NCBI GenBank assembly: GCA_050084515.1
Contig: CM114271.1
Coordinates: 12,152,001 to 12,216,000, forward strand
Direction of reading: 5' to 3'
DNA length: 64,000 nt
Source: Blasia pusilla
Taxonomy: Eukaryota
In this document: positions 1-44,900 of the stretch, one piece after another
Numbering within the stretch: position 1 is the first letter of the stretch
How the letters are laid out: each line of letters starts with the position of its first letter
Translations under genes and position numbers: made by a program
The notes under the pieces: model-generated
Database searches by the model: none
Told to the model about the DNA's origin: nothing
Seen by the model: only the letters and a program-made list of their open reading frames with translations

Positions 1-636
1 TATGGCTTGCAGCAAGGACATTGGAGGGATTGGGACCTATATTAGCTATGGTTGGCTATGGGTTATCGCTTCAGTTGGCATGCATCCTTGGCATCTTTTT
101 CATCATACTTTTTACTCTATGGGAGATAGTCCGATTTATGTGCGGCTATTTGACTTGAGATGGCGGAGGTGTTGGATCTTGATGACCCAGATGTGTGGGT
201 ACAAGCATGTTCTTGGAGGGCCGAGATTTTTTGTAGAGTTATGTCCATGGGATTAGAGAACTTAGGTGTTGCTCAACACAAGGATACATTGAGGTACACG
301 ATCATTCATGGAGGAGGTTATCGCCCAAGGATTAGGAGGTTCCCTCCTGGAGATATGTGTATTTATAGTAGGCGTCAACCATGACGTTAGATGTCAATGC
401 AGGGCGCACAATTTTTCATGTGAGCGAGGTGTTATCAACCTGAGTCATCACATTGGAGGGAATGTTATGGTTTGGCAAGATCATGTGCGCAACTATGTGC
501 CACACCATCTTCTCAATGTGGACACGATAGTGGATCTGTGCTGGGCAAGGGTACTTACGGGCTTGAGGTGTATGTTGTGCGGATCTGCGAGGGGTGTTGC
601 CACCATGTTGGTGTGTGATTGTTGTTCTTGAAGGTG
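1..636 (+). mobile_element. 3' fragment (integrase C-terminus, start of PHD finger) of the DNMT-bearing Gypsy-like family
   Basis: ORFs 160-384 and 308-631 (WQDHVRNYVPHHLLNVD...CMLCGSARGVATMLVCDCCS) are clearly homologous to 35240-35650 of the full copy; homology stops at about 636. Confidence 0.85.
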
Positions 637-2463
637 GGCATCACTCTTCAAAAAAACTCAGCCCTCTGAGAACATGCTCGCATCTATATATGAGGGTCAT
701 CAAGGTTCAACACCTCACCAACATCTTGACAAATGGCCGCAGGTAAATATGGCTCTCGGCCATAAAGCAACACGTACGGTGAGAAAGACCCTAAGGATGC
801 CTGCCTACTAAATGTGTATCCCATCACCAACCATGACAACTGAAGGTCCCAATCTCCTAGGTGACCTATCTACAAGCCTTACTTGCACAATCCTCTCTTC
901 ACCGCCTGCACGACCCTCTCCACTAGTTCATCCGCTTGAGGATGATCTCGCGACGTGGTGTGGTGGTCGATCAACGTATGATCACACAAGGCTTGAAACT
1001 CCCCATAAAACTCCGTATCCTGGTCTTTCAACACCTCATCTAGTGCGCCGTAATGACTCAACACTCAATCTAGGAAGGCAAACGCTACTCCCTCACTTCC
1101 TTTGTCAGGCAATGCAACTTGCTCTATCCACTCCGAGAAGTGCTCGACCATCACCAACACATAACAACTATGGCGCTCCGTCAAAGGTAAAGGTCCTGTA
1201 AAATCCAAACTCCATCTATAACCTTAACCCATGATTGGAAGTGGATGCAAGTGTGGAGTTGGAGCATTGAACAATGCTCGGACCCGATCACACACCATGC
1301 ATCTGGCAAAAAATTGATGAACGTCAGTCTACATGCCTCGCCACCAATACTATATCTAGAGAAAGCTATACGTCCGCTTTACTTCAAAATGACCTAACTC
1401 CTCGTGGGCATGACGCACCAAATGTGCTCTCTACAAAGAATGAGGCACTACACATACTCAAAGATCCTCCCAAACTCGCAACACATGTGTCCCCTCCCAC
1501 CGAAATCGTCTGGCTTGCTGTAGGATCTGATCCCACTCTCTAGGATCCACTCTGCTCGCAACACGGCCAATACGTAGGTACTCCAAGACTACTCCATCGT
1601 CGTGAATGTCTCGGCCACCTTTCATCTCCTCACCGGCCTGTGGATCTAAGGACTCTCCATTAGACCTCGCCATCAAAGTCTTAGCAATCATGCTCTCCAT
1701 AGCCAAGAAGCCCAAAAAGGATGACGCGTACCATCTTGGCACGAACCTCCTCATCACTTTTTCCATGCCAATGAGCTTTGGTTGCATCCCGCTAACTCAA
1801 GCATGGGTTACGGCTCAAACCATTTGCATCCTAGTTGAGCGTCCCAGGTCTATGCACCACCTAGAAATCATACTTCATCAACAACAGAGCCCACCTCGCA
1901 AGCTTCCCTGTAAAGTTGTCGGACTCCATCAACCACTTAAGTGGGTGGTGATCAGTAATAATGGTAAAGGGGTTGCTGAATAGATAACACCAGAAATGTG
2001 CAACAGCCAAGCATTCACCCTCATACGAGCTATACTTTGCCTCTGCAATATTAATGTTGTTTGAGCGACTAGCGTAAGCCACCACGAACTCTCTATCCTC
2101 ATCGTCATGCTAGGTGAGCACATCTCCAAGCCCTAAAATGCTCCAATCGGTATGCAATTGGAAAGGACACCCTCTGATTGGTCTCCTCTATATGGGCGCG
2201 GACATCAATCTATCCTTGATGAGCTGAAATGCTCTCCCTCGCTAATCCCCCCAGTGCCACTCTTGATCCACCTTGGTCAGCAAGGTTAGCGGCTTCGCAA
2301 TCGAACTGAAACCCTTGACTTATAGTTGATATAAGTTCACCAAACCCATGAATGCATGAACTCGACTCATATCTGTAGGGCGTGGAATACGTGAAATAGC
2401 CTCTACCTTCGTGTGTTGCATACCAAGGCCACCTGGGTATATGGTATGACCAAGGTACTCAAT
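637..2463 (-). pseudogene. RT end, RNase H and integrase of the minus-strand DNMT-Gypsy copy (3' segment)
   Basis: VAYASRSNN..AEAKYSSYEGECLAV..TDHHPLKWLM..GKLARWALLL (RNase H) and DQDTEFYGEFQALC..DHPQADELVERVVQAVKRGL (rve core); reverse-complement match to 33560-35325. Confidence 0.9.
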
Positions 2464-7130: not shown

Positions 7131-7147
7131 TATACAAAGAAACTTTT

Positions 7148-7165
7148 TGGCGCCGCTGCTGGGGA
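7148..7165 (+). promoter_or_regulatory. Primer-binding site (tRNA-Asp/Athila-type)
   Basis: TGGCGCCGCTGCTGGGGA resembles the Athila PBS TGGCGCCGTTGCCGGGGA. Confidence 0.75.
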
Positions 7166-15482: not shown

Positions 15483-15508
15483 AGTGTTCGCCGGGGCGGC
15501 TCACATTT

Positions 15509-15521
15509 GGGGGAGGGGATA
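15509..15521 (+). promoter_or_regulatory. Polypurine tract
   Basis: GGGGGAGGGGATA directly before the 3' LTR. Confidence 0.85.
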
Positions 15522-16741: not shown

Positions 16742-16789
16742 TATACAAAGAAACTTTTTGTATATGTAATGTACAAAAAGTGGGTACCC

Positions 16790-22720: not shown

Positions 22721-23534
22721 TTTAGGGTCTAAATGAAGGGATATGGGTGCATTGGTTCCTCTTTACTCCTGACATCTAACAACCTTTTGGTTCAATTTTT
22801 GTCTCAGTCCGATCACATTTTCTTCTTGATGCATACCGATAATTCTCAGTGGTTGAGAGAATAGTGAAACCAAGTTGTCAAATGCACAGCAGTCCATGGT
22901 ATACTTTATGCACCCATTCATGAGCCAACATCATACAATGATGTCATGAAAGTCTCCGAATACCATCAGTGATGAGTGATTTTTTCTGTTGTGGAAGACC
23001 CCCTCATGGATGAGTATTGATTAGATGGGATATTTAATGCCTTTTGCAAGAAGAGTCAACAATCCATAATGTCAACCACATCTTCATAGAAGTTAAACCT
23101 TGAAGGGCACATGAGTCTATTGGGACCATAGTTAGAGTCTTTATTTGAACCTTTCATTTGAGATGAAATTGCTACTTCTGGTCAAATTATCTGTCGATGG
23201 TCCTTCAACAATAATATCCCTCTGCCCGACTTACAATAGAGCTGGCTTAGACAGGCAATGTGAAGAAAATTGAGCTCACATGGAGAGTGATGGAAGGATT
23301 TTTGTAGTGGTCTTATGATGTCTACTTGTTTTTCCAAGCTTGGAAAAGGAAGGTTACTTTAGGCCCGAATGTGGTCCACTTGCTCCTCTCTTCTAAAGAT
23401 TTCAAGAATTTGAAAGCAAACAAAAATTTCAAAAATGTCAAAAAGTTTTGAAGAGAGGAGGTGGATTCTGCCCTTTTTTTAATAGAGACTCTCCTCTCCT
23501 CTCTTCCTCTCTCCTGACTGAATACCAGCCCCTA

Positions 23535-26444
23535 GTACTCAATCTGGTTGTAGAAGAACTTGCACTTTCCTGGATGTAGCTTCAGCCCATGTAATTGCAA
23601 TAGTCAAAACACCTCATATAGATGTTGCTCATGCTCCTCAACCGTGGCGCTAAAGACTACGATGTCATCAATTTAACACCTAGCAAAATTGAGACCTGCG
23701 AAGATCCTATCCATGATCCTTCGAAACTCAGTCGGGGCGTTCTTTAACCCAAATGGTAAGAACCGCCACTAGTGCAAAAAATCCTTCTCGTGAGGATCGA
23801 TGCCCCAAAATGATGTCTTTTGCATGTCCTCCAATCTGATACGTAATTGGTGGTATGCGACTCAAAGATCTAACGAATTGAAGACCTTTACATGCCCAAT
23901 AGCATCAAAGATCTCCTCAAGGGTAGGCATGGCATACCTACCAGATTTTGTCTGCCAATTGATAGGTCAGTAATCTCCACACATCTGCCTATCCGTCTAG
24001 TTGCCATGCACAGCCTTCTTGGCGGGCATGATAGTGGCAGATATATACTCCATGCGACATCTCCATTAGTCTTGCTCCAACCAAATCATGGCTCTTACTC
24101 TGAATCAGAGCCCTCTCCATGTTACTGTACGTGTAGGGTCTTTGGAAGATCGACATGTCACTCGACAACTCAATGCAGATCCCTGGACCCTTCAACGTAC
24201 CCAAATCATGCATGCTAAATGCAAAACAACTCCTACAACTCCTAAGGAACTGGTGAATCCGGCGCCGCTCTCCTCCTGTCAACTTAGGGCCCATATCTAG
24301 CTCCCAAGTCTCCATCGTGACTACGGTAGGACTCTCTCATGCGGGTGTCGATGGTTGCTATGATGCAACCCCATCTTGAATAGTAGAACTCGACTGCTCC
24401 CCTACATCCAACTGCAAACTCTCATCTCTACGTGCAGTACCCAAAACCACGCTCGATGTTGTGGCTATCATCTCCCCGTACCTGTAAGACATCCCAAGAG
24501 GTCCAAGGGTGTCTCCCGATCACTCCTAGTATATCGATCTCCTCGGGTCTTGCCCTTAGCCACAACCGCAACCGTCTTGATAAGCATGGGGCTCACCAAT
24601 GCAACATCTATAATCTGTCGCAAACCTCAAATGACGTTGCTTAACTACTCCTAAGCTGAAAATCTATATCAAGCAGTTTAGGTCCATCGCCTGACCCAAG
24701 ATATGACATCGTGATGCCTTTGATAGTGACAGTACTGCAATCACTCTTATGGGGAATCCCATTGCTAGCTCTCGCTTATCGGCGTTGGGCTCCATCAACC
24801 GCTGTACTTCGTCATCCCAAACCAAGCCACGCCCAACCTCCCATAGGAAGCAAGAAAACTCACCAATATCGGAAAGGATGCTCGTGGCATGCCAATCCTG
24901 TTGATCACAATCAACGGAGGTCGATCATGGTGTCGTACTGCTTGTGATTGGCGACCTGGATATAGAATAGAATCTACCAACAAATGGGAGAGGTGCTCCA
25001 CTCTCACATACGCCCTACGCAAAACCTCATGTGGCACCAAGTTGGTCCACCAAAGACGCAGGCATGAACCTACATTTGCCGCATCCAACAACACTGCCGG
25101 GCCGATCCATGCGCGCACCTAATGTGCATCCGTCACCACACAGGATCTCGAATCTCCTAAAATAAACACATTCTCCACAATCTATGATGGAGAACAAGAC
25201 TGATGCTCTTGTTAGTGTTGCAAGATCTCCATCATCTCCCAAAATAACCTGGACTGAGAGTCAACTAACCCGCTATCTCATCCAACACTCGACCAACAAG
25301 AAATGACCAAATCTATGGTCCCTACCCGCTCCAAGTCTTGCGCCTCCTACAATGAAATGTCCCTCAGTAGGGATCTCTGGTAACCCTAGATGGCGGACGC
25401 AGACAACAAGTCGGGAAATTGGAGACGTAACTACGTCACATGGTGAAGCGAAGAGCGCCTCATAACATCATCAATCTCAATGTACAAGTATTGCTTCATG
25501 CACACTCCTTCCTACAAAAGAGCAGCTAAGCCAGTGCTGATCCCTCCAAAGAGATCCAACACGCGAATACCCTCCTCTGAGATGCGCCACATAATCGAGG
25601 TGGTTTCCAAAGGGGTTATAGTAGCACTCCTTGCTACCTCAAGTTCCTCTTACCCATCACGCTCTGGTGCAAACACTTCACTTTAGGCTGTCTACACGTG
25701 CTCATTAGATAAACGTCGGAGCTCCTTACTCGAGCTCCTCACTCGAGCCCCACAGCGGTTTCTCTCCTCCACGGAATGATGCGGCTATCATAACACTCCT
25801 CACCCTAGACGTGTTAGGCGCCGGGGTATTCTATGCAAAGACATGCCCCTCAATCAAGTCAAAAGGCCACGTGATGATCGTGCTAAATGGTGTTAGAGTT
25901 GCCATCTCTCTTGGCCGTCGCTCAATCACTCCACACGTGAATGAAACGGGTAATGATGTAAGTCGTCCATCATCGGACTGATATCTTGGTCTGTAGGACG
26001 CTGATTCCTCCCAATAATCCAAGGAAAACCCCATCAGGTACAACATTGCTCCACCAACCAAGACGTCGTAGGACTGTGCATTGTTCACGATCGCCTAGGC
26101 TTACACCACGTACTCATTGGTAGGATGTCTTGGGCAAATCCTCACCACGACCTCTTGTCGGGTGATTAATTGTGTGGTATTCGCTTCACCCAACGATGTC
26201 TGTATCATGAATGGACAACGCTCCACGTCGGCCCTCGTTAGGACCAAACCCGTGAATGTCGCCTTACCCAACATCAAGGGTTATGCTCTTGAATCTAACA
26301 AGACACGCTGCGGAAAAAAAAATCTACCTCCTCGACTCACCAATTGGAAGATCTCCCATTGGTAATCCACCAACAAAACACCTAGAGCAACCATGGCACG
26401 CTCTATCACGGATCTAGCGGACATCTCCGCCATCCTAGCAGCCG
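23535..26444 (-). pseudogene. Middle segment of minus-strand DNMT-Gypsy copy: protease, DNMT, RT
   Basis: Reverse-complement homology to ~30630-33575; SYDVLVGGAMLY (protease end) and METWELDMGPKLTGGERRRIHQFLRS (RT start). Confidence 0.9.
24660..25575 (-). pseudogene. DNMT3-like C5 cytosine methyltransferase domain (copy 2)
   Basis: GIRVLDLFGGISTGLAAL (motif I), YLYIEID (II), IVENV (VI), LDAANVGSCLRLWWTNL (VIII); the PCQ motif is deleted in this copy. Confidence 0.85.
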
Positions 26445-26956
26445 TGTCATGTCTTTTAGGATAGATCGGTGAGATGTAGAAGAGCGCCTTCGTGAGTAGT
26501 GGAGGACTGGCTCAATAGGTCGAGCATGACCTACTCAGAACCCGAGAAACCTGAGAGAGCAAGTTTCCCCTTTGTTTCGGCTCATTTGGAGCCATATTAA
26601 GGAACTTACTATTTTAGGTAAGTACCATTTTGAATATATGATCGACTTTATATTTTTGGTAAGTGGCCCTTGACCTCCTACATCAGGTCAAGAGCCAAGG
26701 AGGTGACTTGGGAGAATAGGTTACCATGGAGAGAGCTTGGGAGAGGGAAGGGGTATACCTCAAGGAGAGAGAGCTTGAGAGCTCATTCTCTCTTTGTTCA
26801 ACCTCTTAGAATGAGGCGGCGGAGCTATGGTCCCTTGCCTTGTGAGTGTAACCCAAGCCTCTCATTAGGAGAGTGGGTTTGGTTTGACATGAGAGAGAGG
26901 GCACACCTTTGAGAGCTATGGTGTGAGATGGTGTAGAGAGATTGGATCTTACTTTA
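26445..26956 (+). repeat. Terminal repeat A1
   Basis: Repeated at 36035-36206 plus 37403-37477 (A2) and inverted at ~41420-41932. Confidence 0.85.
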
Positions 26957-28734: not shown

Positions 28735-31350
28735 GTGTCATCTTCAGACGAGGGGGAGCGTGTAGAGGAGTGTGTTAGTGATCCACCGTACATATTGAGT
28801 GGTCCTACCAGTTGGGCGTACGAGATGGACGACCAAGTAGAGGCCCGCGTAGGTTTTCAGGTGCAATAGGTACGATTGAGTTGCACGATTTCATAGCAGA
28901 GCTTAGGAGTTGATGCGACTCCCAGCGGGCAAGGAACTCTAGAGAGTTCAACTTGTTTACAGCATGGAACGGTATGTTCTAGCATTTAGAGGGGGCGACC
29001 ATGGACGATTACCATGAGTTCTCTCAGAGATATGTACGTGAGATCAAGGCGTGGAGGCTCTACTATGACCCACACTATGTGTCATGGACGGAGCCGTTCC
29101 TTGATGAGGAGGAGGAGTTAGAGAGGCTACTTCCTCTTCCACTAGTGATGTTTTAGGAGGGATCACTCGCACTGGAGCAGCTGCACCATCTAGTCAGGTT
29201 CGTCCCAGGTTCAACCTAGTGGTTGAGTTCTTTGCTGAGTTGAGGGCTAGCTACCAAGGGGTACGGACGGAGAAGCTACGGAGCATCCAAAAATTCTAGA
29301 GGCGCCCGCGTGAGAGTTTACGTGAGGCTTACACTCGCTTGGGTCGGTTGATCAACGTCACTCAAGGGATGACGGAGGCTCACACTATCCACTCATGGTA
29401 CGCAATGCTGGACCGGACCCTACAGACACGAGTGCGGGAAAGGGTGCTTCTTATGAACACCTCCCCTATGTTGAGAGATGTTTTTAGGACCGCCGAGAAT
29501 ATTGAGCGCAACATGGCGGAGGAGAGCGTAGCCACCATGGGTTATGGGCGAGAGCAGTCACAATTTTCTGCACCACCTGTGCAGCAACGTGGACTCCGAG
29601 ATAGGTCGACTGTGGCACCACAAGCTCAAGGAGGATATCGGGAGGCCGTGCCATAGAGACATGTGCCTTCATATGCGGCTCAGAAGCAGCCGCCTACGTT
29701 TACTTGTTGTTCATGTGGTGGAGTCCATCATCAACGCGATTGCACTCGTCAGGGTCACGGACGTGTATCTCAGCATGGAGGAGGCTGCACTAGGAGGTTA
29801 TCAGTGTGACTATTGTCAGAGGTATAGTCATACACACGCCAGGTGTTCCAGTTTACATTCTGAGTTACGTCCGGACCAAGGGCCAGAGAGGGTACTAGAG
29901 CAAGTAGCCGGTCCGGGTGGGGCTAGAGGTTGTGCACCGGGTGGTCTCGTTGGGGGACGAGGAGCTAGAGTTGCCCGACAGGGTGGTGGAGCTGCCCGTG
30001 GAGGAGGTAGAGTACCACCAACTAGATGCACCGAGGGAGACGTCGGACGTGAGGCTCGAATGGTTGCTCAGATACAACAGCTACAAGAGCAGATTTCCGC
30101 TATGGCTTTGAGGTTACCCGATGCCAGATCCGTGGCATAGACATCATATAGAGCAGCCAGAGATATGGAGGATCCTGGTTGATGGAGGCAGCCGCGAATT
30201 TGGATCCACAGCGAGGGGAAGCCAAGAAACATACTAGGCTTCTTCAGTCTTTCATTTTGTCTGAGGCGATGAGGACCCCATCGATGGGTCCTGATCAAAG
30301 TTCTTGGAGAGTTGCTGATGTTGTTGGTGTGTAGGCACAGAGGGCGATAGGAGATGCGAGCCTGACGACTCCTATTTTTGATGCGCAAGAGGGGCATCTA
30401 TCGAGCATGTTTTTGGGAGCGGCCACCGTTGTGTACCGCACTCCTTTATTTTCTGCTTTCGATGCTATGACGTTGGGGGGTACGTCCGCCAAGACTTTTT
30501 GGCTAGCCGCTTCACTATGTGAGCGCGGAGTTGGAGGTCCTGGATCACATTTACAGGTGATTGCAGAGGAGGTGATGGACCTACCATTGGAGCGGATGCT
30601 GGGGCCCTCCACATCAGATTCATGGCAGGCTGCGGCTAGTAGGATGGCGGAGATGCCTGCTAGACCCACGATAGAGCGTGCCATGGCTTCTCCTAGTGTT
30701 GTGTTGCTGGATAACCAAGGAGAGCTCTTCTAGTTGGTGAGTCTCGGAGGTAGAGCTTTTAGTCCGCAGCGCGTCTTATTGGATTCAGGAGCGCAACCCC
30801 TGATGTTGGGGAAAGTGTCATTCAGAGGATTGGGCTTGACGAGAGCCGATGTGGAGCGTTTTCCATTCCTGATACAGACATCCTTGGGTGGAGCGAGTAC
30901 CACACAGTATATCACCCGAGAGGAGGTCGTGGTGAGGATTTGCTCGGGACATCCTACTGATGAGTCTGTGGTGTGAGCCAAGGCGAGAGTGACTGATGCA
31001 GAGTCCTACGACGTCTTGGTTGGTGGAGCAGTGTTATACCGGATGGGTTTTTCCCTGGATTACTGGGAGGAGTCAGCGTCCTATAGACCAGGATGGCAGT
31101 CAGGTGATGGGCGCCTTAGTTCATTACCCATTCAATTCACATGTGCAATGATCGAGCGACGGCCAAGAGAAGTGGCGACCTTAGTAACATTTAGCAGTAC
31201 CATCACTTGGCCTAGTGATTTGATTGAGGGACATGTCCATACAGAGGATACTCCCATTCCTTACATTTCTATGGAGAGGAGTGTTATAGTAGCCACATCA
31301 TTCCGCGGAGGAGAGGTGCCGTTGTGGGGCTCGACTAAGGAGCTTTGATG
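28735..31350 (+). pseudogene. Gag and aspartic protease
   Basis: Homologous to MSSSDKGESVEE..LHDFIAEFKSWCD of copy 2; Cys/His knuckle-like CDYCQRYSHTHARC; VLLDSGAQPLMLG (protease). Confidence 0.8.
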
Positions 31351-31492
31351 ATTGGCAGATGAGCACGTGCAGATCACGTGGAGCGAGGCATTTGCATCGG
31401 AGCATGACGGGTCTGAGGAACCCAAGGTAGTAGGGAGTGCTACGATGACACTGTTGGATATGACACCCATTGTGTGGTCTATCTCGGAGGAG

Positions 31493-32465
31493 GGTATTCG
31501 AATGGTAGATCTCTTTGGAGGGATTAACATTTTGTTAGCTGTTGTTTTGCAAGGAGGAGTGCGAGTGCAGCACTATCTGTATGTGGAGAGTAATGATGCT
31601 GCGAGGCGCGTCTGGAGAGTAATGGTGTAATGTGGCACAATTACACCTACGTTTTTACGACTTATTGTCTGCGTCCAGGGTACAGGGGTACCAGAGTTCC
31701 CTACCGAGGGATATTTCGTTGTTGGGGGCGCATGACTTAGAGCGGGTAGGGACCATTGATTTGGTCTTTGCCGGTTGGCCATGTCAAGGCCAATCGAGTG
31801 CTAGACGAGGTAGCCAGTTGGCTGACACTCGATCCAAGTTGTTTTGGGAGATGTTTAGGGTCTTACGGCAGTTGCAAGAGCACTAGTCTCGTTCTCCAGC
31901 CTACATTCTACAGAATGTGCCAATCTTAGGAGACTCCAGTTCATGGGTGGTGACTAGTGCTCATCAAGTGCGTGCCTGGATCGGCCCAATAGTGTTCTTG
32001 GATGCGGCGAGTGTAGGTTCTAGAGCCCATCTCCCTCGTCTATGGTGGACCAACTTGGTGCTCCATGTGGTATTACGAAGGGCATATGCGAGAGTGGAGC
32101 GCCCCTCCCATTTTTTAGTGGATTCCATTCTCGATTGAGGTCATCGATCATAGGTACTGAGGCACGGTGATTGACCACCGTTGACTGTGGTCAACAGGGT
32201 AGGCAGAACGTGGGCAGCCTTGCCTACGTTTGTGAGTTTTCCCGCTTCCTATGCATACAAGGAGGCCGGTCTTGGCTTGGTTTGGGATGACCATGTTCAG
32301 CGGTTGGTGGAGCCCAACGCCGACAAGAGAGAGCGAGCGATGGGATTTCCCATAGGAGTGACGGCTGTACAGTCAGTGTCAGAGGCATCAGGACACCATG
32401 TCTTGGGTCAAGCGATGGACCTGAACTCCTTGACATGGATCCTCAGCTTGGGAGTGGCTGAGTAG
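31493..32465 (+). pseudogene. DNMT3-like C5 cytosine methyltransferase domain inside the polyprotein (copy 1)
   Basis: GIRMVDLFGGI (I), YLYVES (II), DI (III), DLVFAGWPCQGQS..LADTRSKLFWEMFRVL (IV/V), YILQNV (VI), LDAASVGSRAHLPRLWWTNL (VIII), ERAMGFPIGVT (IX), HVLGQAMDL (X). Confidence 0.92.
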
Positions 32466-32765
32466 CATCGTATGAGATCACGATAGATCAGAGCGGTTGC
32501 GTTGGTGAGCCCCATGCCTACCAAGATAGTGGAGGCAGTGGCTAGGGGCGAGACCCAAGGAGATCTACACACTAGGGGAGATCGAGAGAGACACCCTTGG
32601 ACTTCTTGGGATGTTTTGCAGGTACGCCAGGAGCTGATAGCCATAGCATTGAGCGTGGTTCCGGGCATTGCACGTGGAGGAGATCAGAGTTTGCAATTGG
32701 CTGCAAGAGAGCGGCCGAGTGTTGTTGTTCAAGACAGGGTTGCACCATAGCAACCACCGATACCC

Positions 32766-35330
32766 GTGTCGGAGAGTCCTACCATACTCACGATGGAGAC
32801 TTGGGAGCCAGATATGGGCCCTAAGTTGACAGGAAGAGAGCGGCGCCGGATACATCAGTTCCTCAGGAGTTATAGGAGCTGCTTTGCGTTTAGCATGGAG
32901 GATTTGGGTACGCTGAAGGGACCGGGGATCCGCATTGAATTGTCGAGTGATACGCCGATCTTCCAACGACCCTACAGGTACAGTGATATGGAGAGGGATC
33001 TGATTCAGAGTAGGAGCCAGGACTTGGTCGGAGCAGGACTAGTGGAGATGTTGCATGGGAAGTATGCATCTACCACTGTCATGCCTGCCAAAAAGGATGT
33101 GCATAGCAATTGGACGGATAGGCGGATGTGTGGGGTTTACCGACCTATCAATCGGCAGACGAAGTCCAATAGGTATGCCATGCCCACCCGTGAGGAGATT
33201 TTTGATGCGATTGGTCATGCAAAGGTCTTTAGTTCATTGGATTTGCGAGCCGGATACCATCAACTGCCTATCAGATTAGAAGACAGGCAGAAGATGGCAT
33301 TTTGGGGCATCGATCCTCACGGGAAGGATTGTTTGTAGTAGTGGCGGTTCTTACCATTTGGGTTAAAGAACGCCCCGGCTAAGCTTCAGAGGATCATGGA
33401 TAGGATCTTGGCTGGTCTGGATTTTGCTAGGTGTTATATTGATGACATCATAGTCTTTAGCGCCACGGTTGAGGAGCATGAGCGACATCTAGAGGAGGTG
33501 GTTCGACGATTGCAATTACATGGGCTGAAGCTACATCCAGGCAAGTGCAAGTTCTTCTATGACCAGATTGAGTACTTGGGTCATACGATATACCCAAGGG
33601 GCCTTGGTGTTTAGTAGATGAAGGTAGAGGCTATCTCACGCATTCCACGCCCTACAGATGTGAGCCGTGTTCGCGCATTCATGGGATCGGCGAACTTCTA
33701 TCCGTGATACGTCAAGGGATTCAGTTCGATTGCAAAGCCACTGACCTTGCTGACCAAGGTGGATCACAAGTGGCACTGGAGGGATGAGCAGGAGCTAGCA
33801 TTTCAGTTGCTCAAGGACGGGTTGACGTCCGCACCCATCTCGAGGAGACCGATCAGGGGGCGCTTTCCAATTGCACAGAAATTGGAGTATGTTGGGGTTT
33901 GGAGCGATGCTCATCCACTATGATGATGAGGGCAGAGAGTTTTTGGTGGCTTACTCTAGCCGCTCAAACAACGCTGCAGAACCAAAGTTCAACTTGTATG
34001 AGGGTGAGTGCTTGGCTGCGGTGTGGGCTATCGCGCATTTCAGGTGTTACTTATTCGGAAACCTCTTTACCATCATCATTGATCATCAACCACTGAAGTG
34101 GTTGATGGAGTCCGAGAAGCTTACAGGGAAGCTTGCTAGATGGGCTCTATTGTTGCAGGAGTATGATTTTCAAGTCGTACATAGACCTAGAACGCTCAAC
34201 GAGGATGTAGATGGGTTGAGTCGTAACCCATGCCCGAGTTAGCGAGATGCGACTGGAGCTCGATGGCATGGAGAGCCAGAGTGTGGAGACTTCAATGGCG
34301 AGGTCAAGAAGGAGAGTCCTTGGATCCCGAGGCAAGTGAGGAGACGACAAGTGGCCGAGATATTCATGATGATAGAGTAGTCTTGGAGTACCTCCGTATT
34401 GGCAGCATTGCGAGCACCGTGGGTGCTAGAGAGCGGGATCGGATCCTACAACGGGCCAGACGGTTCCGTTGGGAAGGGACACATGTTTTGAGGGTTTGGG
34501 AGGATGGCAGAGTACGCATAGTGCCGCATCCTTTGCAGAGAGCATGACTAGTGCAGCATGCCCACAAAGAGTTGGATCACTTTGGAGTGAAGTGGACGTA
34601 CAGCTTGCTCCAGATTCAATATTGGTGGCGAGGCATGCAGACGGACATTCAACAGTTTGTTGCCAGTTGCATGGTGTGTGATTAGGTCCGAGCATCCTTC
34701 AATGCTCCAACTCCACAGTTGCATCCATTATCGATCATGGGCGTAGGGTAAAGATGGAGTTTGGATTTTGCAGGCCTTTGACAGAGCGTCACAGCCGTTA
34801 TGTGTTGGTGATGGTTGAGCACTTCTTGAAGTGGATCGAGTTGGTTGCATTGCCTGACAAAGCGAGTGAGGGAGTAGCTTATGTCTTCCTTGCCAGAGTG
34901 CTGAGTCATTATGGCGCACCGGCTTAGGTTTTGACAGACCAGGGTATCGAGTTGTGCGGTGAGTTCCAAGCCTTGTGTGATCAAGCGCTAATTGACCACC
35001 GCACGACTTTGCGAGATCATCCCGAGGCGGATGGATTAGCGGAGAGAGTTGTGTAGCCTGTGAAGAGGGGTTTACGCAAGTATGGCTTGGAGAGAGGTCA
35101 TCTAGGGGATTGGGACCTCCAGTTGCCCTGGTTGGCGATGGGATACAGATTCAACAGGCAGGCATCCTTAGCGTCTTTTTCACCGTACTTGCTACTTTAT
35201 GGCCGAGAGCCAGATTTACTTACGGCCATTCGTCGAGATACTATGAGGTGCTCGACCTTGATGACCGAAATGTATGGATGCGAGCATGTTCTCAGAGGGC
35301 TTAGTTATTTCGGAGAGTGATGCCCATGGC
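32766..35330 (+). pseudogene. pol: RT, RNase H, integrase
   Basis: RRMCGVYRPIN..FSSLDLRAGYHQ..YIDD..LKLHPGKCKF; AYSSRS..YEGECLAAVWAI; HHCC zinc finger and rve core. Confidence 0.93.
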
Positions 35331-35574
35331 GTCCGACCAACTATCCGGAGGTTTCATCAGGGAGATTATGTCTACTTCTAAATGATGGCACTAACGACAT
35401 TGGATGTGACTGCAGGGCGCACTATCTTGAGAGTGCGTGACGTTTTTCCATCCAGTGTTCTCTTGCGGGAGGGACGCAATGGTATGGTATGGAAGGACCA
35501 TATGCGTAATTGTGCGCCATGTCACCTTCCCAACATTTATGGTACATTAGATCCAACCTTAGTAGTAATTCCTG

Positions 35575-35726
35575 CAAGCTTGCGTTGTATGTTGTGTGGT
35601 TCTGTCCGTGGTGCGGCCACGATGCTAGTTTGTGATGGATGTTTAAGAGGTTGGCATATGGCATGTCTGACGCCACCTCTCACTAGGGTTCCTCGGGGAC
35701 GATGGATGTGTCCTAGATGTACATAG
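35575..35726 (+). CDS. C-terminal PHD finger of integrase
   Basis: CMLC..MLVCDGCLRGWHMACLTPPLTRVPRGRWMCPRC is a complete C4HC3 PHD with the canonical Trp. Confidence 0.92.
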
Positions 35727-35915
35727 AGGAGATACTAGGTAGGTTTCGATTCCGACTTTTTCTGTGACATGGATAACACAGGAAGGCGACTAACGATGGG
35801 GCCACATGAGCACTCGACCTTTCTTGCTCTTAATGTCTGAGAGATGTATGTTATGGTAGGTAGGGATAGATGGCTATCTAGAGTTAGAGGGACATAACCA
35901 CCAGCTAGGGGGGCG

Positions 35916-36033
35916 ATTGGAGATATTTTAGTACTTCTTGTCTTGTTGTTTGGATGCCATGATTTAGCATGGGATCGTACGTGTTTGTGTCTGTATTCGG
36001 TGACAACGATGTATGTTGTGTATGCGCACGACA
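35916..36033 (+). repeat. Terminal repeat B1 (after purine tract AGGGGGG, 35907-35913)
   Basis: ATTGGAGATATTTTAGTACTTCTTGTC...GCGCACGACA, repeated at 37478-37588. Confidence 0.85.
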
Positions 36034-36200
36034 ATGTCACATATTTTAGGATAGATCGGTGAGATATAGTAGAGCATCTTTGTGAGTAGTGGAGGACATG
36101 CTCAATAGGTCGAGCATGACCTACTCAGGCCCCGGGAAACGTGAGAGAGAAGGTTTCCCCTTTTTTTTGACTCATTTGGAGCCATATTGAAGAACTTACT

Positions 36201-37402
36201 ATTTTATAGTCGATTTAGTAAGTTCGATCCCCAAGAGAATCATTGCTTGATGAAAAGAGAGTTCGGAATTACAATTCTGTTGTAATAGTTGTATTTAAAT
36301 GTGTGTGAGTTATATTCAATATCTTATCAATATCTTCTGATATTTCTTAGTACCAAAAGGATCTTTTCTCGGTTCTCTCTAGTGGAATTGACAGCATGTT
36401 CAGGTAGATTTTCCTCTCGACATCAAGAAACCTCAGAGAGATCTCAACACAGAAGCTGGCTTCTCCTACTTTCGGAACTCAATCCGTCTTGGCAGGTTAC
36501 TCTCTGTCAAACAGATTTCCTACAACTCATGTTGATTATTTCAGTGATGAGAAAGGTTTGCTTGATTCACTCCTCATTCTGCAGACCCAAAAAGAATACT
36601 CAGACATAAGCATCGCACATCAGAATGAATGAATGACTGCTTTACTACTCCATCAAGAACGAGAAAGCTTCAAAGTGTATACAAGCTCGAGAGGGTACTA
36701 CTCTCTTTCTCGGACCATTCCTACAACATAAGGACTTCGTAAGAGAATAATGATAATGACTTCTGCTTTGCTTCTTAAATATTTTCTGGAGTGGAAGTAA
36801 TCCTAAGATTCGAAACGTTCTTGATGAAGCTAGAGTCTCTTCACTGTTTCTAACTACCTAGATCTATGGTTCTCTTAGCTCTTCATATGATCCCTGTGAA
36901 TCCGTAGTACAAAACTGTTCTAACTACCAATTTGATACAAAGGGTCGCGCCCTTTCCTAGTCTAACTGTTTTAACATGTGTCTCTTGAAATCACAGTCCT
37001 TCTTAGCTTTGCTTTGTTGGACTTCAGGAGGACAAAGTACTCCATGCTTCGTTCTTATTTCTTGTGCTTCTTACTTCGTGCTTCGTTAAAGAGCGAAGTA
37101 CTTTGTTCTTCTTTTCTTCGTGATGCTTCGTTATGTAGCGAAGCACTTCAAAAACAGAGCTTCGTACATCTTTGTTAGGCTTCGTTAAGCTTTGTTCTGA
37201 GTCTTGAGACTTTGTTATTGAGTTTTCCTCTCCTCTAAGGCAACTCCTTGATCTTCCATCTCTCTGCCTTGTCCCAGGAGCTTCGTGATTCACTTATTCT
37301 TCTTAATAATAATAAATAATCATAATCAAAATCATAATATACAAGAGTCTTCGTTGAATAAAAAGATATATTCTTCAAGAGTACAAAATTTTGGGTATCA
37401 CA
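36201..37402 (-). mobile_element. Solo LTR family A within repeat A2 (one end lost by deletion)
   Basis: Reverse complement of 5911-7110, ending ...GGGTATCACA; ATTTTA microhomology at the deleted end. Confidence 0.9.
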
Positions 37403-37477
37403 GTTTGACATGAGAGAGAGGGCACACCTTTGAGAGCTATGGTGTGAGATGGTGTAGAAAGATTGCATCTTACTTTA

Positions 37478-37588
37478 ATTGGAGATATTTTAGTACTTCT
37501 TGTCTCATTTTTTGGATGCCATGAGTTAGCATGGGATCATGCTTGTTTGTGTGTGTGTTCAGTGACAGCGATGTGAATGCGCAAGACA
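37478..37588 (+). repeat. Terminal repeat B2
   Basis: Copy of 35916-36033, ends GACA. Confidence 0.85.
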
Positions 37589-40500
37589 ATCGCAATCTGC
37601 CATCAAACTAAAGTGGACGGCCCGAGCATCGGCTCCAAGGGCAAGTCCATCACCTCCTTTGCAATCACCTTTGAATGTGATGCAAGAACACCATCTCCAT
37701 GCTCACATAGCATAGTGGCCAACCAGAAAATCTTGGCGGGCGTACCTCCCAACATCATAACATCGAAAGCAGAAAACTGAGGAGCACGATACTGTGAGAA
37801 AACAGAAAGTGACGAAATCACTCAAAACTTTACAAAACTTAGAGATACAAAGTGGCCTAGTCCGTCCGTGCGCTCACAGAAGAGCTTTGATGGAACCTGA
37901 ACTGGGAGATAACTCGACATACGAGAATGCGCTACCGGTGCGGCTCCCGACTATTTGACTACTCGGGAAAACTAGGGTATTTACCTATTTTTCTTCATTT
38001 CTATTAATAGAAAAATTTTGCTTCAGGATGCCCCGCATCTGATGCAATATAGGGTTAGATAAACCTAGTAACGCTTCTCCTAAAACCACCTACGTCATAT
38101 TACTATGACTCCTTCGAGGTCTAAGTCGGAACCATCAACCTAGGCTTCTCCTCATACAAGGGGGCCCATCAGATTAATGGTGCTTAGAGAAGTGGATGTT
38201 GAGAATCCAAAAAATTCAACAATGAGATTCATCGTGGCCACCCCCAACATTGTACTTGACACATGCTCCTCCGAAGCACCAGCAATAGGAGTTTTTGTAC
38301 TCGTTTCTCGCATTGCCCTCCGTGCCTGCACTTCAACAACATCAACTCTACGGGAACTATGATCAGGACCCATCAATTGGGTCCTCATTGCCTCCAACAA
38401 CGTGAAAGACTGAGGAAGCCTGGTGTGCTTCATGGCTTCCCCTCTGTGTGGATCAACTATGCGGAAGCTCCACGTGTGTAACAGTGGCTGCCTCCAATTG
38501 GATAGTCACGCACATCCACCCAGGATCCTGCATATCTCTGGCTGCTCCATAGGACGTCGATGCCACGGATTTGGCATCGGATAACCTCAATGCCATTGCG
38601 GCAATCTGTTGTTGTAGCTGTTGTATCTCAGCAGCCATCCTCGCCTCATGCCCGGCGTCTCCCTTGAGGCGTCTAGGTGGTGGGACTCTACCTCCTCCAT
38701 GGGCAACTCCACCACCCCCTCGGGCAACTCGAGCTCCTCGTCCCCCAACGGGACCACTTGGTGCACGACCTCTAGGCCCACCTAGACCGGCAACTTGCTT
38801 TGGTGTCCTCTCAGGCCCTTGGTCCAAACGTAACTCAGGGTGTAAGCTAAAATACCTGGCACGTGTGTGACCGTACCTCTGACAATAGTCACACTAATAA
38901 CCTTCTCATGTAGCACCATCTCCTCCTCCATGTTGAGGCACGCGTCCATAACCCTGATGAGTACAATTGCGATAGTGATAAGCTCCATCACATGCCCAAC
39001 AAATAATCGCAGGCGGTTGCTGTTGAGCCGCCTATGAAGGCGCAGGTCTCTATGGCACGGCCCCATGCTATCCTCCCTGAGCTTGTGGAACCATAGACCT
39101 ATCTCAGAATCCATGTTGCTGCATTGGTGGTGCAGGAAATCGTGATTGCTCTTGCCCAGAACCCATGGAGGTCCTAAAACATCAATATTCTTGGAGGTCC
39201 GAAAACATCTCTCAAGGTAGGTGAGGTGTTCCTAAGAAGCACTCCCTCCCGCACCCGTGTCCGCAGGGTTTGGTCCAACATCACGTACCATGACTGAATA
39301 GCGTAGGACTCTGCCACCCTCTAAGTGACGTTAATCAACCGGTGCAATCGAATGGAGGCCTCACGCAAACTCTCACCCGGACGCCTGTGGAAGTCATGGA
39401 TGCTCCGTAACTTCTTTGTCGTTATCCCTTGGTAGCTCGTCCGCAACTTAGCAAAGAACTCAACCACGAGGTTGAACCTAGGACAAACCCAACCGGACGG
39501 TGCAACTGCTCTAGTGTGAGTTACCCCCCCCTAAAACACCATTGGTGGAAGAGGAAGTAGCCTCTCCTGACTCCTCCTCCTTATCTGGGAATGGCTCCGT
39601 CCATCACACATAGTGTGGGTCATAGTACAGTTGCCATGCCTCAATCTCCTGGGCATATCTATGGGAGAACTCATGATAATTGTCCATGGGCACCTCCTCC
39701 AAATGCTGGAACATTCCGTTCCATACTGTAAACGGGCTGAACTCTCTCGAGTTTGTAGCCCGATGTGAGTCACACCAACTCTTAAACTCTGCAATAAAGT
39801 CGTGCAACTCTATTGTGCCTATAGCACCTAGAAACCTACGCGTTCCTCTACCTCGGTCGTCCATCTCGTACGCCCAAGTGGTAGGACCACTCAATGTGTG
39901 CGGTGATGCACTAAAAAACTCCTCTACACTCTCCCCCTTGTCTGAAGATGACACAAAAGGAGGTCGAGGTGGTTCCTCACGTGGAGAACCTCAAAACTTT
40001 GCACTACTCTGGGCAAACCCTCTAGAGCTACTTTCAGTTCCACCACCTTGCCTCTCTAAGTCCCGAAAGGACGCCGTGATGACCCTTGTGTCCCTCTCAC
40101 ACGATCACTCTCAATCTCGCGAGTAATCACTCAATCACTCAAACTAAGTATGCGACACTCAATCTACACTCTCTCACTTAGACGTGTGTTGTGCGGCAAC
40201 AAGCGGCGTGGTGGGGCAAACTGGTTGATTTATCCTCTCATGAACAGCGCATACCCTCAACTCTAGACATCGCACACAGGTCTATGTCCCCTAAACCCAT
40301 ACATCATCGATGCTCTCAGAATTAGCACAAAACCCAATATCCCCAAATAACTACCCTATACCCGGAAATCCCTAACACGTGTTGGGAAAAAGACCAGAAT
40401 GGGCAGCCTGAATAAATGTCGATCGCTCCTCAGCAACTAGAAACCTCGACCCCAACTTGGTCATAAAGACAAACTCCTCCAAGCAGCAAGTCGTACTGCT

Positions 40501-41932
40501 CTAGTATTGACTATGCTCCAAAATCTCCTTGATGTGCGGTGCTGGTCTAGCGATACGGTAGGACATTGGCGGCACATGATGGATACAGACGGCACTTCAC
40601 TCAAGAATGGGGTGCGGCACTCGGCGGCATATCCTCCTCGGTCAACAAAACGCAATCTGCTCCCTAGTGATGGAGTGGCTCTGTGATTGAGACGGTGCGG
40701 TGCGGCCACCAACAACATGGGGCTGCAATCAATGGCGCGTTGCGGCTAAGGGCGTCACGACAGAGTACTTGATCATCGTTGAGCGACTATCAATTATAAC
40801 ATAGCAAAGTGGAAAAGAAATTGCGATCCCATGAATCCAAAAAGGTCACCTTGTCGAAGTCGCGAGTTAACAAGTGGCGACGACTCATACGAATTGACGA
40901 AGTACAGCAGCGACGGCCCTACCTAGCCTTAAACGGTGTCGGCGGCCCGATGCAATCCTAAACAGTGGTAGCTGCGGCAATTGACAATGGCAATGGCGAC
41001 GGCGGCAACTCGTGTTGGCGACGGCGGCGTCTGGTTTAGGGTTTGATAATTTTTACCCTAAAACTTGGAAGTTTACAAAATCGATCATAACTTTTGCTCG
41101 CAGTTCCAAATTGCGCAGCGTTTGTCACACAGCGTGCACAGCTTTAGGAACTACGATGGCATCAAAAAATATTTCAATTGGACCTTCTGATAAGAACTGA
41201 CGGGGACTGTTGTAAAGCCCTTCAATCTCCTATCCTACAAGAATTTTGGCAACGCTTCCATGCTGATTTCTCCCAACAGAAATAGCAAAATTGAGCGGCT
41301 TTTGCTCCGATGAGCACTCCCATGAGCCGTAGAACATGACTCACATTCCCCAACCTGCACCAACAGCGAGTGACCAGCGAGCTACTCCATTGAAACTCTC
41401 TCACTTCTTCATTCTCTCTTTGTAAAATCAATGAAATCTCACATCAATGTCTAACACCAAACTCTCCATGGTGTGCACTTTCTCTCATGTCAAACAAAAC
41501 CCACTCTCCTAATAAGAGGCTTGGGTTACACACATAAGACAAGGAGGACCATAGCTCCGCCGCCTGATGCCAAGAGGTTCAACAAAGAGAGAATGAGCTA
41601 TCAAGCTCTCTCTCTTGGAGGTATACCCCCTTCCCTCTCCCAAGCTCTCTCCTCGATAACCAATGCTTGCAGGTCACCTCCTTGGCTCTTGACATGTTGT
41701 AGCGTATCAAGGGCCACTTCACAAAGTGAAAAGTCAACTATACTCCAAATGGAAACTTACCTGAAATAGTAAGTTTTTCTATATGGCTCCAAATGAGCCG
41801 AAACGAAGGGGAAACCTGCTCTCGCAAGATGCCATGGCCGCAACAGGTCATTCTCGTCCTCTTGAGGCTATCCTATGGTATCTCCAAAGGCGCTCTACTC
41901 AATCTCTCCGATCTATCCTAAAAGACGTGATA
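37589..41932 (-). mobile_element. 5' segment (repeat A, leader, gag) of minus-strand DNMT-Gypsy copy
   Basis: Reverse-complement homology to 26445-30630; begins TATCACGTCTTTTAGGATAGATCGG at 41932. Confidence 0.9.
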
Positions 41933-44900
41933 TGACCTACAAGTGTAGGTCATCCTTCCCTTTATGAGGAGTAGCAACCTTGTAAAGGTTGATCCTCCTA
42001 TCCTTGTGTGGAGCCACTTGGACCTATAGGGTTGAGGGTTAGTTGGTAATTGGTCTCATCAAAGGACCACAAGTGTAGTTGTTAGGGAGTTAGTACCTTG
42101 TGTACTTCAGGTCGTTAGTGACCTGCTTGGAGGAGGTTATATGTCTTTACAAGTTACCCATGGAGGTTTTCGGAGGGTTTACCTTGGATGAAGCTCATTC
42201 AGAGCTCATCTTCCTTAGGATTAGACCCATGTTGGGATCCGTTATACTGTGCGGCTTACATGTACTGAGCTTGGAATCTCTCTTGAAGAATAGGCTAGGA
42301 TAGATTGAAGATCACACATATTGAGAGTTATTTGCATACTTTCTCCTAATTTTGCAACAATGTATATTATTGATATGGATGTTTGGATGAAGCATAGTGG
42401 ATTGCAGATTTCTTCAGAGTTTACAATTCATATCAACTTTATGATTGGGGTTGTCCAGTCATTCATATGGAGATATGTTACGATTCATTGTTAAATGGAT
42501 CTTAGAGTTATATGCATGACAACTGATGTATGTTGGCAGCGATGTCTATTCGCACAACAAAGGAGATAGGGCCCACATGGACAATCCTTCAATAACAAGT
42601 CCACATGCAACTTTGTCTAGGACTTATGCACTCCAAACTTGTATGTGATGCTTTACAATATAGCAAAAGCATAACACACTATTTAGATACATACTCAAGC
42701 TCAAAAGTTTTCTTTGTCCTCATTTTTATGTAGAGGCTTACATTAAACTTTTCCTTCTTCATCAAATTTCCTCTAATGGAAATATAATTTAATGCATTCC
42801 ATACTCAAGAGTTGTACCTTTTTAGAAATTTTTCCAAACTACGTGTCTTTACCTAGCATCCCGAGCCCCTACCTCTTCCTATCTTAATAGTCTTTAGGCT
42901 TCCACAATCTTCGTTATGAAGACCTTTAGTCATTGCTACAAATGTTTCTCCGTAATAGCTTGGTCTTCTTCAAGATATCTTTGATATGAAGACAAATTAT
43001 CTTATTCTTCTCCTTCATGTCTTCCCTAAGTTTTTTCTCACACATTTCTTCATTCCTCTAGAATGAGTACTAGTTTCCTTTAACTTCTTCTTCATCTCCT
43101 TGGAACCCATTCCACATACACTTTCCCGAATACCCAATGCGATTCCATTTTACTCCCAAGATATATGCAAGTTTACAAAATTTTATGTTTTCCCAATTCC
43201 TAATATATTGTAACAATCTCTTTCTAACTCTCATTTCCTCATTCCTTATCCTAAATCTTCAAATTTTCCTAAAGGTAGGTATCACATAGAGGATATTCTT
43301 CTTAGCATTGTAGGCTATTTTGCATTATGTCCTTAGTTTTATACTTAGTGATCTCACTCATACGATGAACTTACCATTGTATCAAGCTTAACTCATTCTC
43401 ACAATCCCCGACTATTGGTTGATCATGTTCACAAATAAGACATTATAACCATGCATGGTAACCTCTTGCTACGATTTACTTCCGGTAGTGCACTACAACA
43501 CATAACACTTGAGCACTACACCCTCTCTAATTTCTATCATTTCACCTACAATTCTATGACTAAGGCTATTACTAGTGCATGATAGTCACGGTTAGAACCT
43601 AGAGATATATTATGCCAATAAAGCTAGCAATCAGGATGCATGGTGTTATTTATTCCAACACTTCCAAACTTTATTTCAATACTCACTCACCTTTTGTTCA
43701 AGAGTGACTCTTACACTAGCCCCATGCATAATTCATTACTCAGTGGCTTTCCATTTAATTTAATTTCCATATCACTCTTATGCTATCTCCTTAAATAATT
43801 CACCACTCCCTAACCTTCCGTTCAAGTTCTCAACTTAGTTCAACCACACACATTAATCCAAGTCTAATTTGGCTGCACACTTGTTAACATCTCAAAGTTT
43901 TCATTTGTATTGAGTTACGTTACCTTCTTTCTACTTTGGTGTGTTGGATGGAGGATGCCCCATTTTTTACTCCAAACAAACCAATCGTAAATTTGACTGT
44001 GTTACTATGTTTAATGCTCCCTATGTCTTGGTTGTTACGGCCATTACAAGCCGTAATTTTTTTTAGCCTATCCACGTGATTTTTTTTAACCTACGGCCCT
44101 CCGTATGTCGAGTTTGGTGATTAAGGAATTGGTCTGAGATAGTGATTCTTCACCAGTTTACCTCAGATCCCGAGAAGAGACATATATCTCATCGCATACT
44201 CAAACGATGCGTACAACTAAGACACCCCTCAACCCAACTGATGAGAGCTTGCACACAATTCATCGTCCATCCTGCGTTGCCGGACGAAAAGGTTGTGAAG
44301 CAACGCGAGCAATTTGTGTCAGATCTGGCTCATGACATTTACTTTCCGATCAAGTGGAAAATTTAATTCATCGTTACAGAAGCTCTGAAACATAGAGTCC
44401 AGCCTGCGTGCGAACTGATACGTGAATATTCGTGACCATCCAGATGTAGATGTTGCTCTGGATCTCCTAACCGTAGTTGTTGAAGATGAGCTATATACCT
44501 CGCGGGCGGGGAAACGAATAGATTTTCGTTCGCCAGATTGAATTCCTAGCTCTTCTTTACTGCCAAAATTTCCCCGTACCTCTCCATATGTCCAATTCCT
44601 TTGTAGTTTGTCACACTATTGTTTTGCGCCGGATACTCTCCGCCCGTCGCTCCTTCACAATTGGCTTTCATGCGTCCCAATATGTGCGACATTGTGTGCA
44701 AACGATCCCAGACGAACTTGAACTCTCGAGTTCTGTTTCTTCTCCCCCGTACTTCTTCTATTCTCGACGGTTTTGCCTCATCCTCGTCATATTTTGTTAA
44801 AACTCAACCAGGACTACAGCCGTGTATTTCACCCCACTCCCACATGTTTCCCAGTTAATGTCTCAAGTTCTTAATCCTTTAGATTCTCGAGGTATTCATG

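Follow-up and report, generated by a model that had tools for sequence, protein, structure and literature searches.

What is a DNA methyltransferase (DNMT) doing inside a retrotransposon of a liverwort, and to what kind of element does it belong? The question is raised by a stretch of the genome of Blasia pusilla. Retrotransposons that bear an enzyme of the type with which hosts ordinarily silence them are rare, and their part in the host-transposon conflict is poorly understood. The window, that is, the whole stretch of DNA that we analysed, comprises 64,000 nucleotides (GenBank assembly GCA_050084515.1, contig CM114271.1, positions 12,152,001 to 12,216,000 of the forward strand; all coordinates below are those of the window). 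An initial annotation, made from the sequence alone, had placed a DNMT3-like C5-methyltransferase (C5-MTase) between the protease (PR) and the reverse transcriptase (RT) of a Gypsy-like element present in two diverged copies, and this is where we find it: the domain lies between PR and RT in the pol region of copy 1 (plus strand) and of copy 2 (minus strand; Table 1). We conclude that it very probably belongs to two dead copies of one streptophyte retrotransposon family of the Gypsy-DNMT3 type.

In both diverged copies, an alignment identifies the C5-MTase motifs I, IV, VI, VIII, IX and X in unpermuted order. In copy 1, motif I (MVDLFGGINILL) is read in the frame of 31352-31630 and the others in the frame of 31623-32465, that is, AGWPCQG (IV), YILQNV (VI), GSRAHLPRLWWTNL (VIII), EPNADKRERAMGFP (IX) and LGQAMDLN (X); a frameshift near 31620-31630 joins the two frames, and the second contains stops at residues 88, 172, 177, 184 and 281, the last of which is the end of the domain. 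PCQ is kept in copy 1, ENV has become QNV, ISTG has become INIL (so that motif I reads DLFGGINIL), and the copy reads LPR, with RxR present in 134 of the 137 relatives described below. Copy 2 retains DLFGGISTGL and IVENV; five residues are gone at PCQ, the three residues RAH of motif VIII are deleted, and the reading frame is broken by many stops and by a frameshift near 24830. The lesions are thus complementary, as the initial annotation had described them, with a different catalytic motif lost in each copy; the DLFGGISTG wording that it quoted for the domain is correct for copy 2 and not for copy 1. Both copies are dead, that is, neither could make an enzyme, because an open frame and intact catalytic residues are missing in both.

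Judged by profile scores, the resemblance of the domain to C5-MTases is beyond chance. The Pfam model DNA_methylase (PF00145), which had been suggested at the outset as a check, matches an 87-amino-acid (aa) piece of copy 1 (31623-31886) with 33.6 bits, above its cut-off of 22 bits (E 3.7e-8), and it matches a read-through translation of copy 1, with X at the stops, with 32.8 bits (E 6.6e-8). When the domain is compared with 1.84 billion representative proteins using phmmer, 1246 matches reach E<=1e-3; of these, 458 reach 1e-10 and 69 reach 1e-30, and the lowest E-value is 5.3e-72.

The class of methyltransferase was assessed against solved structures, among which the best match of the copy 1 read-through alone is DNMT3A (1.6e-5). 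A family profile constructed from 21 full-domain relatives ranks the catalytic domains of the animal DNMT3s highest (structures such as 2qrv, 6u8p and 8tci), that is, DNMT3A (E 3.6e-29, colinear in three blocks), DNMT3C (4.5e-27) and DNMT3B (3.5e-26), with motifs I to X colinear. The second-best group is plant DRM, a DNMT3-derived enzyme (tobacco DRM, 6.6e-18; Arabidopsis DRM2, 2.3e-14, matching only profile positions 87-217, about half of the profile), followed by M.HhaI (1.2e-10) and DNMT2 (about 2e-7); DNMT1 does not appear among the matches at E<=0.01. The partial match of DRM2 is as expected for a permuted enzyme: DRM has motifs VI-X before I-IV, and only profile positions 82-219 align, whereas the order in the element is I, IV, VI, VIII, IX, X. 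We therefore rejected identity with DRM, for which a permuted order is expected and an unpermuted one is observed. On this ranking of E-values the domain appears to be DNMT3-like and unpermuted, unlike DRM, as had been proposed initially.

The element domain and animal DNMT3 share a short target-recognition region and the ER..GFP and LG.. endings; they differ in motif X (LGQAMD in the element, LGRSWS in animal DNMT3) and in the stretch between motifs VIII and IX, which is longer in the element. The element domain also sits in a retrotransposon polyprotein and differs from animal DNMT3 in its lack of PWWP and ADD, the companion domains of the animal enzymes; Pfam searches of ten translated pieces of copy 1 and of five related polyproteins detected neither of these, nor the companion domain of the land-plant enzymes. 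Their absence is not strictly defining, as algal DNMT3s without companion domains are described in the portion of a 2025 MBE survey that was available to us.

The anatomy of copy 1 (26445-37590, plus strand) identifies the carrier as a Gypsy element. Its layout is gag-PR-DNMT-RT-RNaseH-integrase-PHD finger, with repeats in the arrangement A-coding-B-A-B. We mapped the coding regions by tblastn with two Marchantia proteins (P0162, gag-PR-DNMT; P0164, PR-DNMT-RT-RH, in which RH is RNase H) and two metagenome polyproteins, and the PR-DNMT-RT order of copy 1 matches that of the second Marchantia protein. The translation of the open reading frame (ORF) at 29532-30140 contains the CX2CX4HX4C knuckle of gag; the Pfam matches are weak for PR (Asp_protease_2, E 0.082) and for the integrase (rve, on one piece). 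The PHD finger is found at the equivalent place in relatives (e.g., P0013 and P0022) and occurs in both of the architectures described below. Among the genomic reads, 388 and 153 join the terminus of A to the beginning of B, and 1303 pass from the terminus of B into TGTCAC, the beginning of A; the abundance of both junctions indicates that the A-coding-B-A-B layout is a property of the family, and for the same reason we rejected a standard long terminal repeat (LTR) with a tandem duplication.

Two other assignments were considered and rejected. The A-B-A-B repeats recall DIRS elements, but the element has a DDE integrase instead of a tyrosine recombinase: no phage-integrase match was found, Integrase_H2C2 and rve are present in the relatives, and the integrase of copy 1 was located by tblastn. 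Chromoviruses, which are Gypsy elements with a chromodomain after the integrase, also have a chromatin-reader module at the integrase C-terminus, but in this element that module is a PHD finger; to our knowledge, chromoviruses carry no methyltransferase.

Copy 1 is inserted antiparallel inside copy 2, which is older, in its protease-proximal part. The copy 2 flanks abut exactly at the copy-1 equivalent 30633|30634; the middle part of copy 2 ends at the copy-1 equivalent 33580, and its probable 3' part resumes at 33567, with about 21 kb of other transposons in between. The A1 sequence is also the 5' end of copy 2 (41933-41294, 80% identity). Copy 1 is itself old, because its repeats are only 83-97% alike. 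Over 28001-36000, G exceeds C on the coding strand of copy 1 (GC skew +0.18 to +0.22); copy 2 mirrors this on the opposite strand (-0.19, 24001-26000).

Table 1. Features of the Gypsy-DNMT3-type copies in the window (window coordinates).
Feature	Position	Strand	Evidence or remarks
Copy 1, repeat A1 (512 bp, begins TGTCA)	26445..26956	+	Direct repeat of 36035-36206 (88%) and 37403-37477 (97%)
Copy 1, gag (several frames)	28839..30107	+	tblastn with P0162 residues 9-413
Copy 1, aspartic protease	about 30656..31153	+	LLDSGAQ in ORF 30734-30976; tblastn with PR region of P0017 and with P0162
Copy 1, DNMT3-like C5-MTase (dead)	31466..32465	+	Stops at 31884, 32136, 32151, 32172, 32463
Copy 1, reverse transcriptase	32787..33614	+	Double stop 33339-33341; tblastn, 61% identity to Marchantia P0164
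Copy 1, RNase H	33826..34242	+	Pfam RT_RNaseH, 3e-29
Copy 1, DDE integrase, zinc-binding part and core (two or three frames)	34332..35364	+	tblastn with P0017 and P0013
Copy 1, C-terminal PHD finger	35586..35720	+	Pfam PHD, 2.9e-11; residues 69-113 of ORF 35382-35726
Copy 1, repeat B1 (ends GACAA, directly before A2)	35916..36034	+	83% identical to B2
Copy 1, repeat A2	36035..37477	+	Interrupted at 36196-37402 by solo LTR of another Gypsy family
Copy 1, repeat B2 (3' end of element)	37478..37590	+	Repeat comparison
Copy 2, 5' part (A repeat, leader, gag)	37591..41933	-	74-81% identical to copy 1 26447-30634
Copy 2, middle (PR, DNMT, start of RT)	23530..26444	-	79% identical to copy 1 30633-33580; tblastn
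Copy 2, DNMT3-like domain (dead)	24625..25625	-	tblastn, alignment
Copy 2, probable 3' part (end of RT, RNase H, integrase)	635..2463	-	79-81% identical to copy 1 33567-35326; tblastn
Third copy, fragment (end of integrase, PHD finger), cut by window edge	1..697	+	tblastn, P0013 residues 1303-1527; blastn, 73% identity to 35081-35329

The nearest named relatives of the domain are proteins of liverworts and one moss that carry hypothetical or unnamed annotations; the remaining matches are from metagenomes and read assemblies. A protein from Calypogeia fissa (65% identity over 99% of the query) is among the closest, Marchantia polymorpha contributes more than a dozen gene models (51-63% identity, query coverage 35-99%) and Sphagnum fallax contributes one (49% identity). 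Two architectures are found in the wider family. In the first, which is that of the window and of Marchantia, the DNMT precedes RT (PR-DNMT-RT-RH-INT, with INT denoting the integrase); in the second, the DNMT lies between RNase H and the integrase (RT-RH-DNMT-INT-PHD). A search aimed at the second identified Haematococcus lacustris (a chlorophyte; P0278), a EukProt transcript and many metagenome proteins. When 300 proteins were typed, 67 have the first architecture, 148 the second, which is enriched in this set by the targeted search, and 85 are undecided. Three related loci were found on metagenome contigs; the best (L001, 4860-11405) encodes RT-RH-DNMT-INT-PHD in an uninterrupted ORF of 2182 aa, and it has no terminal repeats within its 14 kb, so it provides no independent check of the A-B-A-B layout. 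At the same locus an ORF of 1163 aa precedes the long one in the same frame, with a single stop between them (possible read-through). Two proteins from Closterium (Zygnematophyceae; P0300 and P0301) have a related DNMT domain that lies before RT; one of them, which also has Copia-type Pfam domains, possibly corresponds to the 'LTR Copia' mentioned in the 2025 MBE survey, unless its gene model is chimeric.

The trees fit a single capture of the DNMT followed by a single move of the domain. In a FastTree phylogeny of 242 DNMT domains, the two window copies are sisters (99) within a clade of 20 rows (99) that also contains 12 Marchantia, one Calypogeia, one Sphagnum and four metagenome rows, and one change suffices between the two architectures. 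In a quick IQ-TREE analysis of RT-RH (63 rows, that is, 18 of the first architecture, 30 of the 94 of the second, the RT of copy 1 and an outgroup of 14 ordinary plant Gypsy rows from a single Gypsy lineage, with no row from Klebsormidium), all 49 DNMT-bearing rows group together against the outgroup (100), the second architecture forms one clade (99) nested among the first, and the RT of copy 1 is sister to the Marchantia RTs (99).

The relatives suggest that selection has kept the domain. In DNMT3A and M.HhaI the catalytic Cys, the Glu of ENV and the two arginines of RxR serve DNA cytosine methylation. In the 137 relatives with full coverage of the domain, 134 retain the Cys, all 137 the Glu and 134 each Arg; the four residues occur together in 129. 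Within the alignment, eight of the 12 rows from named bryophytes have the complete set. These counts support the expectation in the initial annotation that the family consensus would be catalytically intact. In motif IV, 48 of the 137 read GWECQ, an unusual variant with Glu at the Pro position of the PC dipeptide, and these 48 are spread over both architectures.

Relatives such as P0017 have PR, the DNMT and RT in a single uninterrupted reading frame. A comparison of dN/dS across copies had also been proposed; we calculated Ka/Ks by the Nei-Gojobori method between copy 1 and copy 2, using shifted frames as controls, and, because both copies are dead, the result is weaker than a comparison among young copies would be. 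For the DNMT (305 codons), Ka/Ks is 0.38 in frame and 0.72 in the shifted frame; the corresponding values are 0.29 and 1.04 for RT (254 codons) and 0.42 and 0.65 for PR (224 codons). Since the in-frame values are below the shifted ones, part of the divergence between the two copies arose with the frame under constraint.

The family is abundant in its host. We compared one run of genomic reads and three runs of RNA reads with copy 1 at >=80% likeness. The element accounts for 186,560 of the 12,434,590 genomic records, or 22.9 of 1965.9 million letters (about 1.2%). The summed genomic depth in the DNMT bins is about 1470-2130 (mean 1812), compared with 1973 for gag, 2478 for PR, 2879 for RT-INT and 410-750 for the foreign LTR; thus, DNMT coverage amounts to 0.63 of RT-INT coverage and roughly equals that of gag. 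This depth places the domain in the bulk of the family. At sites with a mismatch to copy 1 in 25% or more of the reads, copy 1 has A/T and the reads G/C at 585 and the reverse at 285; this excess fits the C-to-T decay of a methylated, silenced copy, that is, copy 1 would have decayed in the way typical of methylated plant repeats.

The three RNA runs contain 7068, 7360 and 7347 reads on the element. These fall on one strand in ratios of 10 to 100 to 1, and the strand bias is reversed across the foreign LTR, which has the opposite orientation; assuming the usual chemistry of stranded libraries, the family is transcribed in sense. Copy 1 itself is at most marginally expressed. The RNA reads depart from copy 1 at fixed sites (35530, 34080 and 34799) with a mutual agreement of 0.95-0.99, which suggests that much of the family RNA comes from few near-identical copies elsewhere in the genome.

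The closest published element is KnitGypsy-Dnmt3 of Klebsormidium nitens, described as a Gypsy element whose Pol ORF includes a DNMT3 of non-rearranged type, with A-coding-B-A-B repeats as in DIRS elements, few copies in K. nitens, and purifying selection on the DNMT (Ka/Ks below 0.2) (de Mendoza et al., 2018, Nat Commun 9:1341). The window element shares the unpermuted DNMT3-type domain in a Gypsy Pol, the repeat layout and the purifying selection on the DNMT. It differs in host lineage (Klebsormidium is a charophyte alga, whereas the nearest named relatives of the window element are from liverworts and a moss), in abundance (about 1.2% of the sampled genomic letters vs few copies) and in its PHD finger, a term with 0 occurrences in the text of that paper available to us. 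This comparison is one of described anatomy, and not of sequence or drawn domain order. SymbioDIRS-Dnmt3 of Symbiodinium, as presented in the same text, likewise has a DNMT3-type domain in Pol, A-coding-B-A-B repeats and two coexisting domain orders; it carries a tyrosine recombinase, whereas the window element carries a DDE integrase with a zinc-binding domain.

The initial annotation had suggested that, in a land plant, the element would extend the known range of such elements, and this holds in part. In the literature searched, from which supplementary lists were outside the search, no land plant is named as a host, and the elements are described from dinoflagellates and charophyte algae; we now find them also in bryophytes. 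However, relatives are already present in the annotations of Marchantia, Calypogeia and Sphagnum, and a 2026 preprint, in the portion available, writes 'streptophytes (Gypsy-DNMT3)', so the gain in host range is only modestly new. The additions are a land-plant family that is both abundant and transcribed, the occurrence of the DNMT at two sites within pol, and a PHD finger in the place of the chromodomain. Thus, a Gypsy-DNMT3 family can reach about 1% of a genome and be transcribed there, and the two DNMT positions together with the PHD finger provide a compact example of transposons assembling chromatin toolkits.

Could the domain have a more ordinary explanation than membership in such a family? 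That a host DNMT3 gene was broken by transposon insertions, and was never transposon-borne, is scarcely credible. The window is a pile of nested transposons, as that explanation would have it, but the PR-DNMT-RT order recurs in the two window copies, in Marchantia and in metagenome proteins, about 1.2% of the genomic letters match the element with a DNMT depth close to that of gag, and the PWWP and ADD domains that Pfam might have detected are absent from the copy 1 pieces and related polyproteins that were searched. It is very improbable, too, that a piece of a host DNMT3 gene was picked up by one element and carried without function. The death of both window copies and the loss of a motif in four of the 12 named bryophyte rows are what a passenger would be expected to show; hundreds of diverged relatives across green algae and bryophytes nevertheless conserve the catalytic residues, the in-frame Ka/Ks is well below its out-of-frame control, and the DNMT is in frame with its neighbors both in P0017 and in the 2182-aa ORF of L001. 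An unlikely but more substantial alternative is that the bryophyte elements with the DNMT before RT and the Klebsormidium element captured DNMT3 independently and are convergent look-alikes. Retrotransposons are known to have captured DNMTs more than once (de Mendoza et al., 2018; the 2026 preprint), two domain positions exist in the wider family, and no Klebsormidium protein is present among 59 and 101 matches, although searches with short exact words and length limits make this miss weak evidence. On the other side, Gypsy domains combined with A-coding-B-A-B repeats are an unusual combination that recurs in the published description, the DNMT tree needs only one change of architecture, and the 49 DNMT-bearing rows of the RT tree stand together against the 14 outgroup rows (100). 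Because no Klebsormidium sequence was found, kinship with the published family rests on shared anatomy and not on a tree.

If the domain belongs to a Gypsy-DNMT3-type family, what would it do there? Tentatively, we consider it possible that in live copies the DNMT would be made as part of Gag-Pol and, being part of it, would travel into the particle together with RT; there, or after integration, it would methylate the new cDNA or the fresh insertion de novo, while the PHD finger at the C-terminus of the integrase would read histone tails and choose or mark the site. Packaging and methylation of the cDNA are the hypothesis published by de Mendoza et al. (2018), in the text available. The chief competing explanation, which we regard as somewhat unlikely, is that selection kept the domain for something other than de novo DNA methylation, that is, an RNA target, a structural role in binding DNA or S-adenosylmethionine (SAM) within Pol, or self-restraint of transposition. 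RNA methylation and self-restraint are both discussed as options in that paper, whose Klebsormidium Gypsy DNMT gave no methylation in yeast, and the GWECQ motif of 48 relatives departs from the classic PC dipeptide. Against it, the Cys, the Glu of ENV and the RxR arginines persist together in nearly all relatives counted, and the related DIRS-borne DNMT3 domains of Symbiodinium methylate CG in yeast (de Mendoza et al., 2018, same text). A stronger version of de novo methylation, in which the family is still transposing and its own DNMT3-like enzyme, steered by the PHD finger, methylates new cDNA or insertions and contributes to the methylome of a land plant, we think doubtful; if true, a transposon-encoded de novo methyltransferase would add to a land-plant methylome. 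As hypothetical proteins of Marchantia polymorpha are among the relatives, the idea of self-methylation can be tested in a tractable plant that is a genetic model.

Several observations weigh against the account of the domain and its family given here. No activity has been shown for any Gypsy-borne DNMT3, and for the yeast result with the Klebsormidium enzyme the authors' own word is inconclusive (de Mendoza et al., 2018, in the text available). Both window copies are dead, four of the 12 named bryophyte rows that we aligned have lost a motif themselves, and a clear target-site duplication is not readable at the junctions of copy 1. The placement with DNMT3 is a ranking of E-values against solved structures and not a tree with DNMT1, DNMT3 and DRM references. 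The depth over the DNMT is below that over RT, which higher divergence or loss of the domain in some copies could each explain. For transcription, the sense call depends on the library chemistry, and RNA reads >=99% alike to copy 1 number only 9, 3 and 2 in the three runs.

The remainder of the window contains other transposons, and Rfam gives no match in it. A young full-length Gypsy element of another family occupies 5911-16760 (plus strand); its 1.24-kb LTRs (5911-7149 and 15522-16760) are 98.95% alike, its gag-pol ORFs are long and open (9090-12011), and a further ORF of 464 aa lies at 13623-15017. The best named matches of its protein at 10839-12008 are from Calypogeia fissa (55-56%) and Marchantia (59%, partial), with angiosperms at 45-51%; the best unnamed match is 69%. 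Solo or partial LTRs of this family are located at 36196-37402 (1.2 kb, inside A2), 4926-5897 and 61861-63026. Finally, an ORF of 218 aa (60605-61261, plus strand) has a CPKDC...CPKC pattern, which may be that of the transposase-associated domain of plant CACTA-type DNA transposons.

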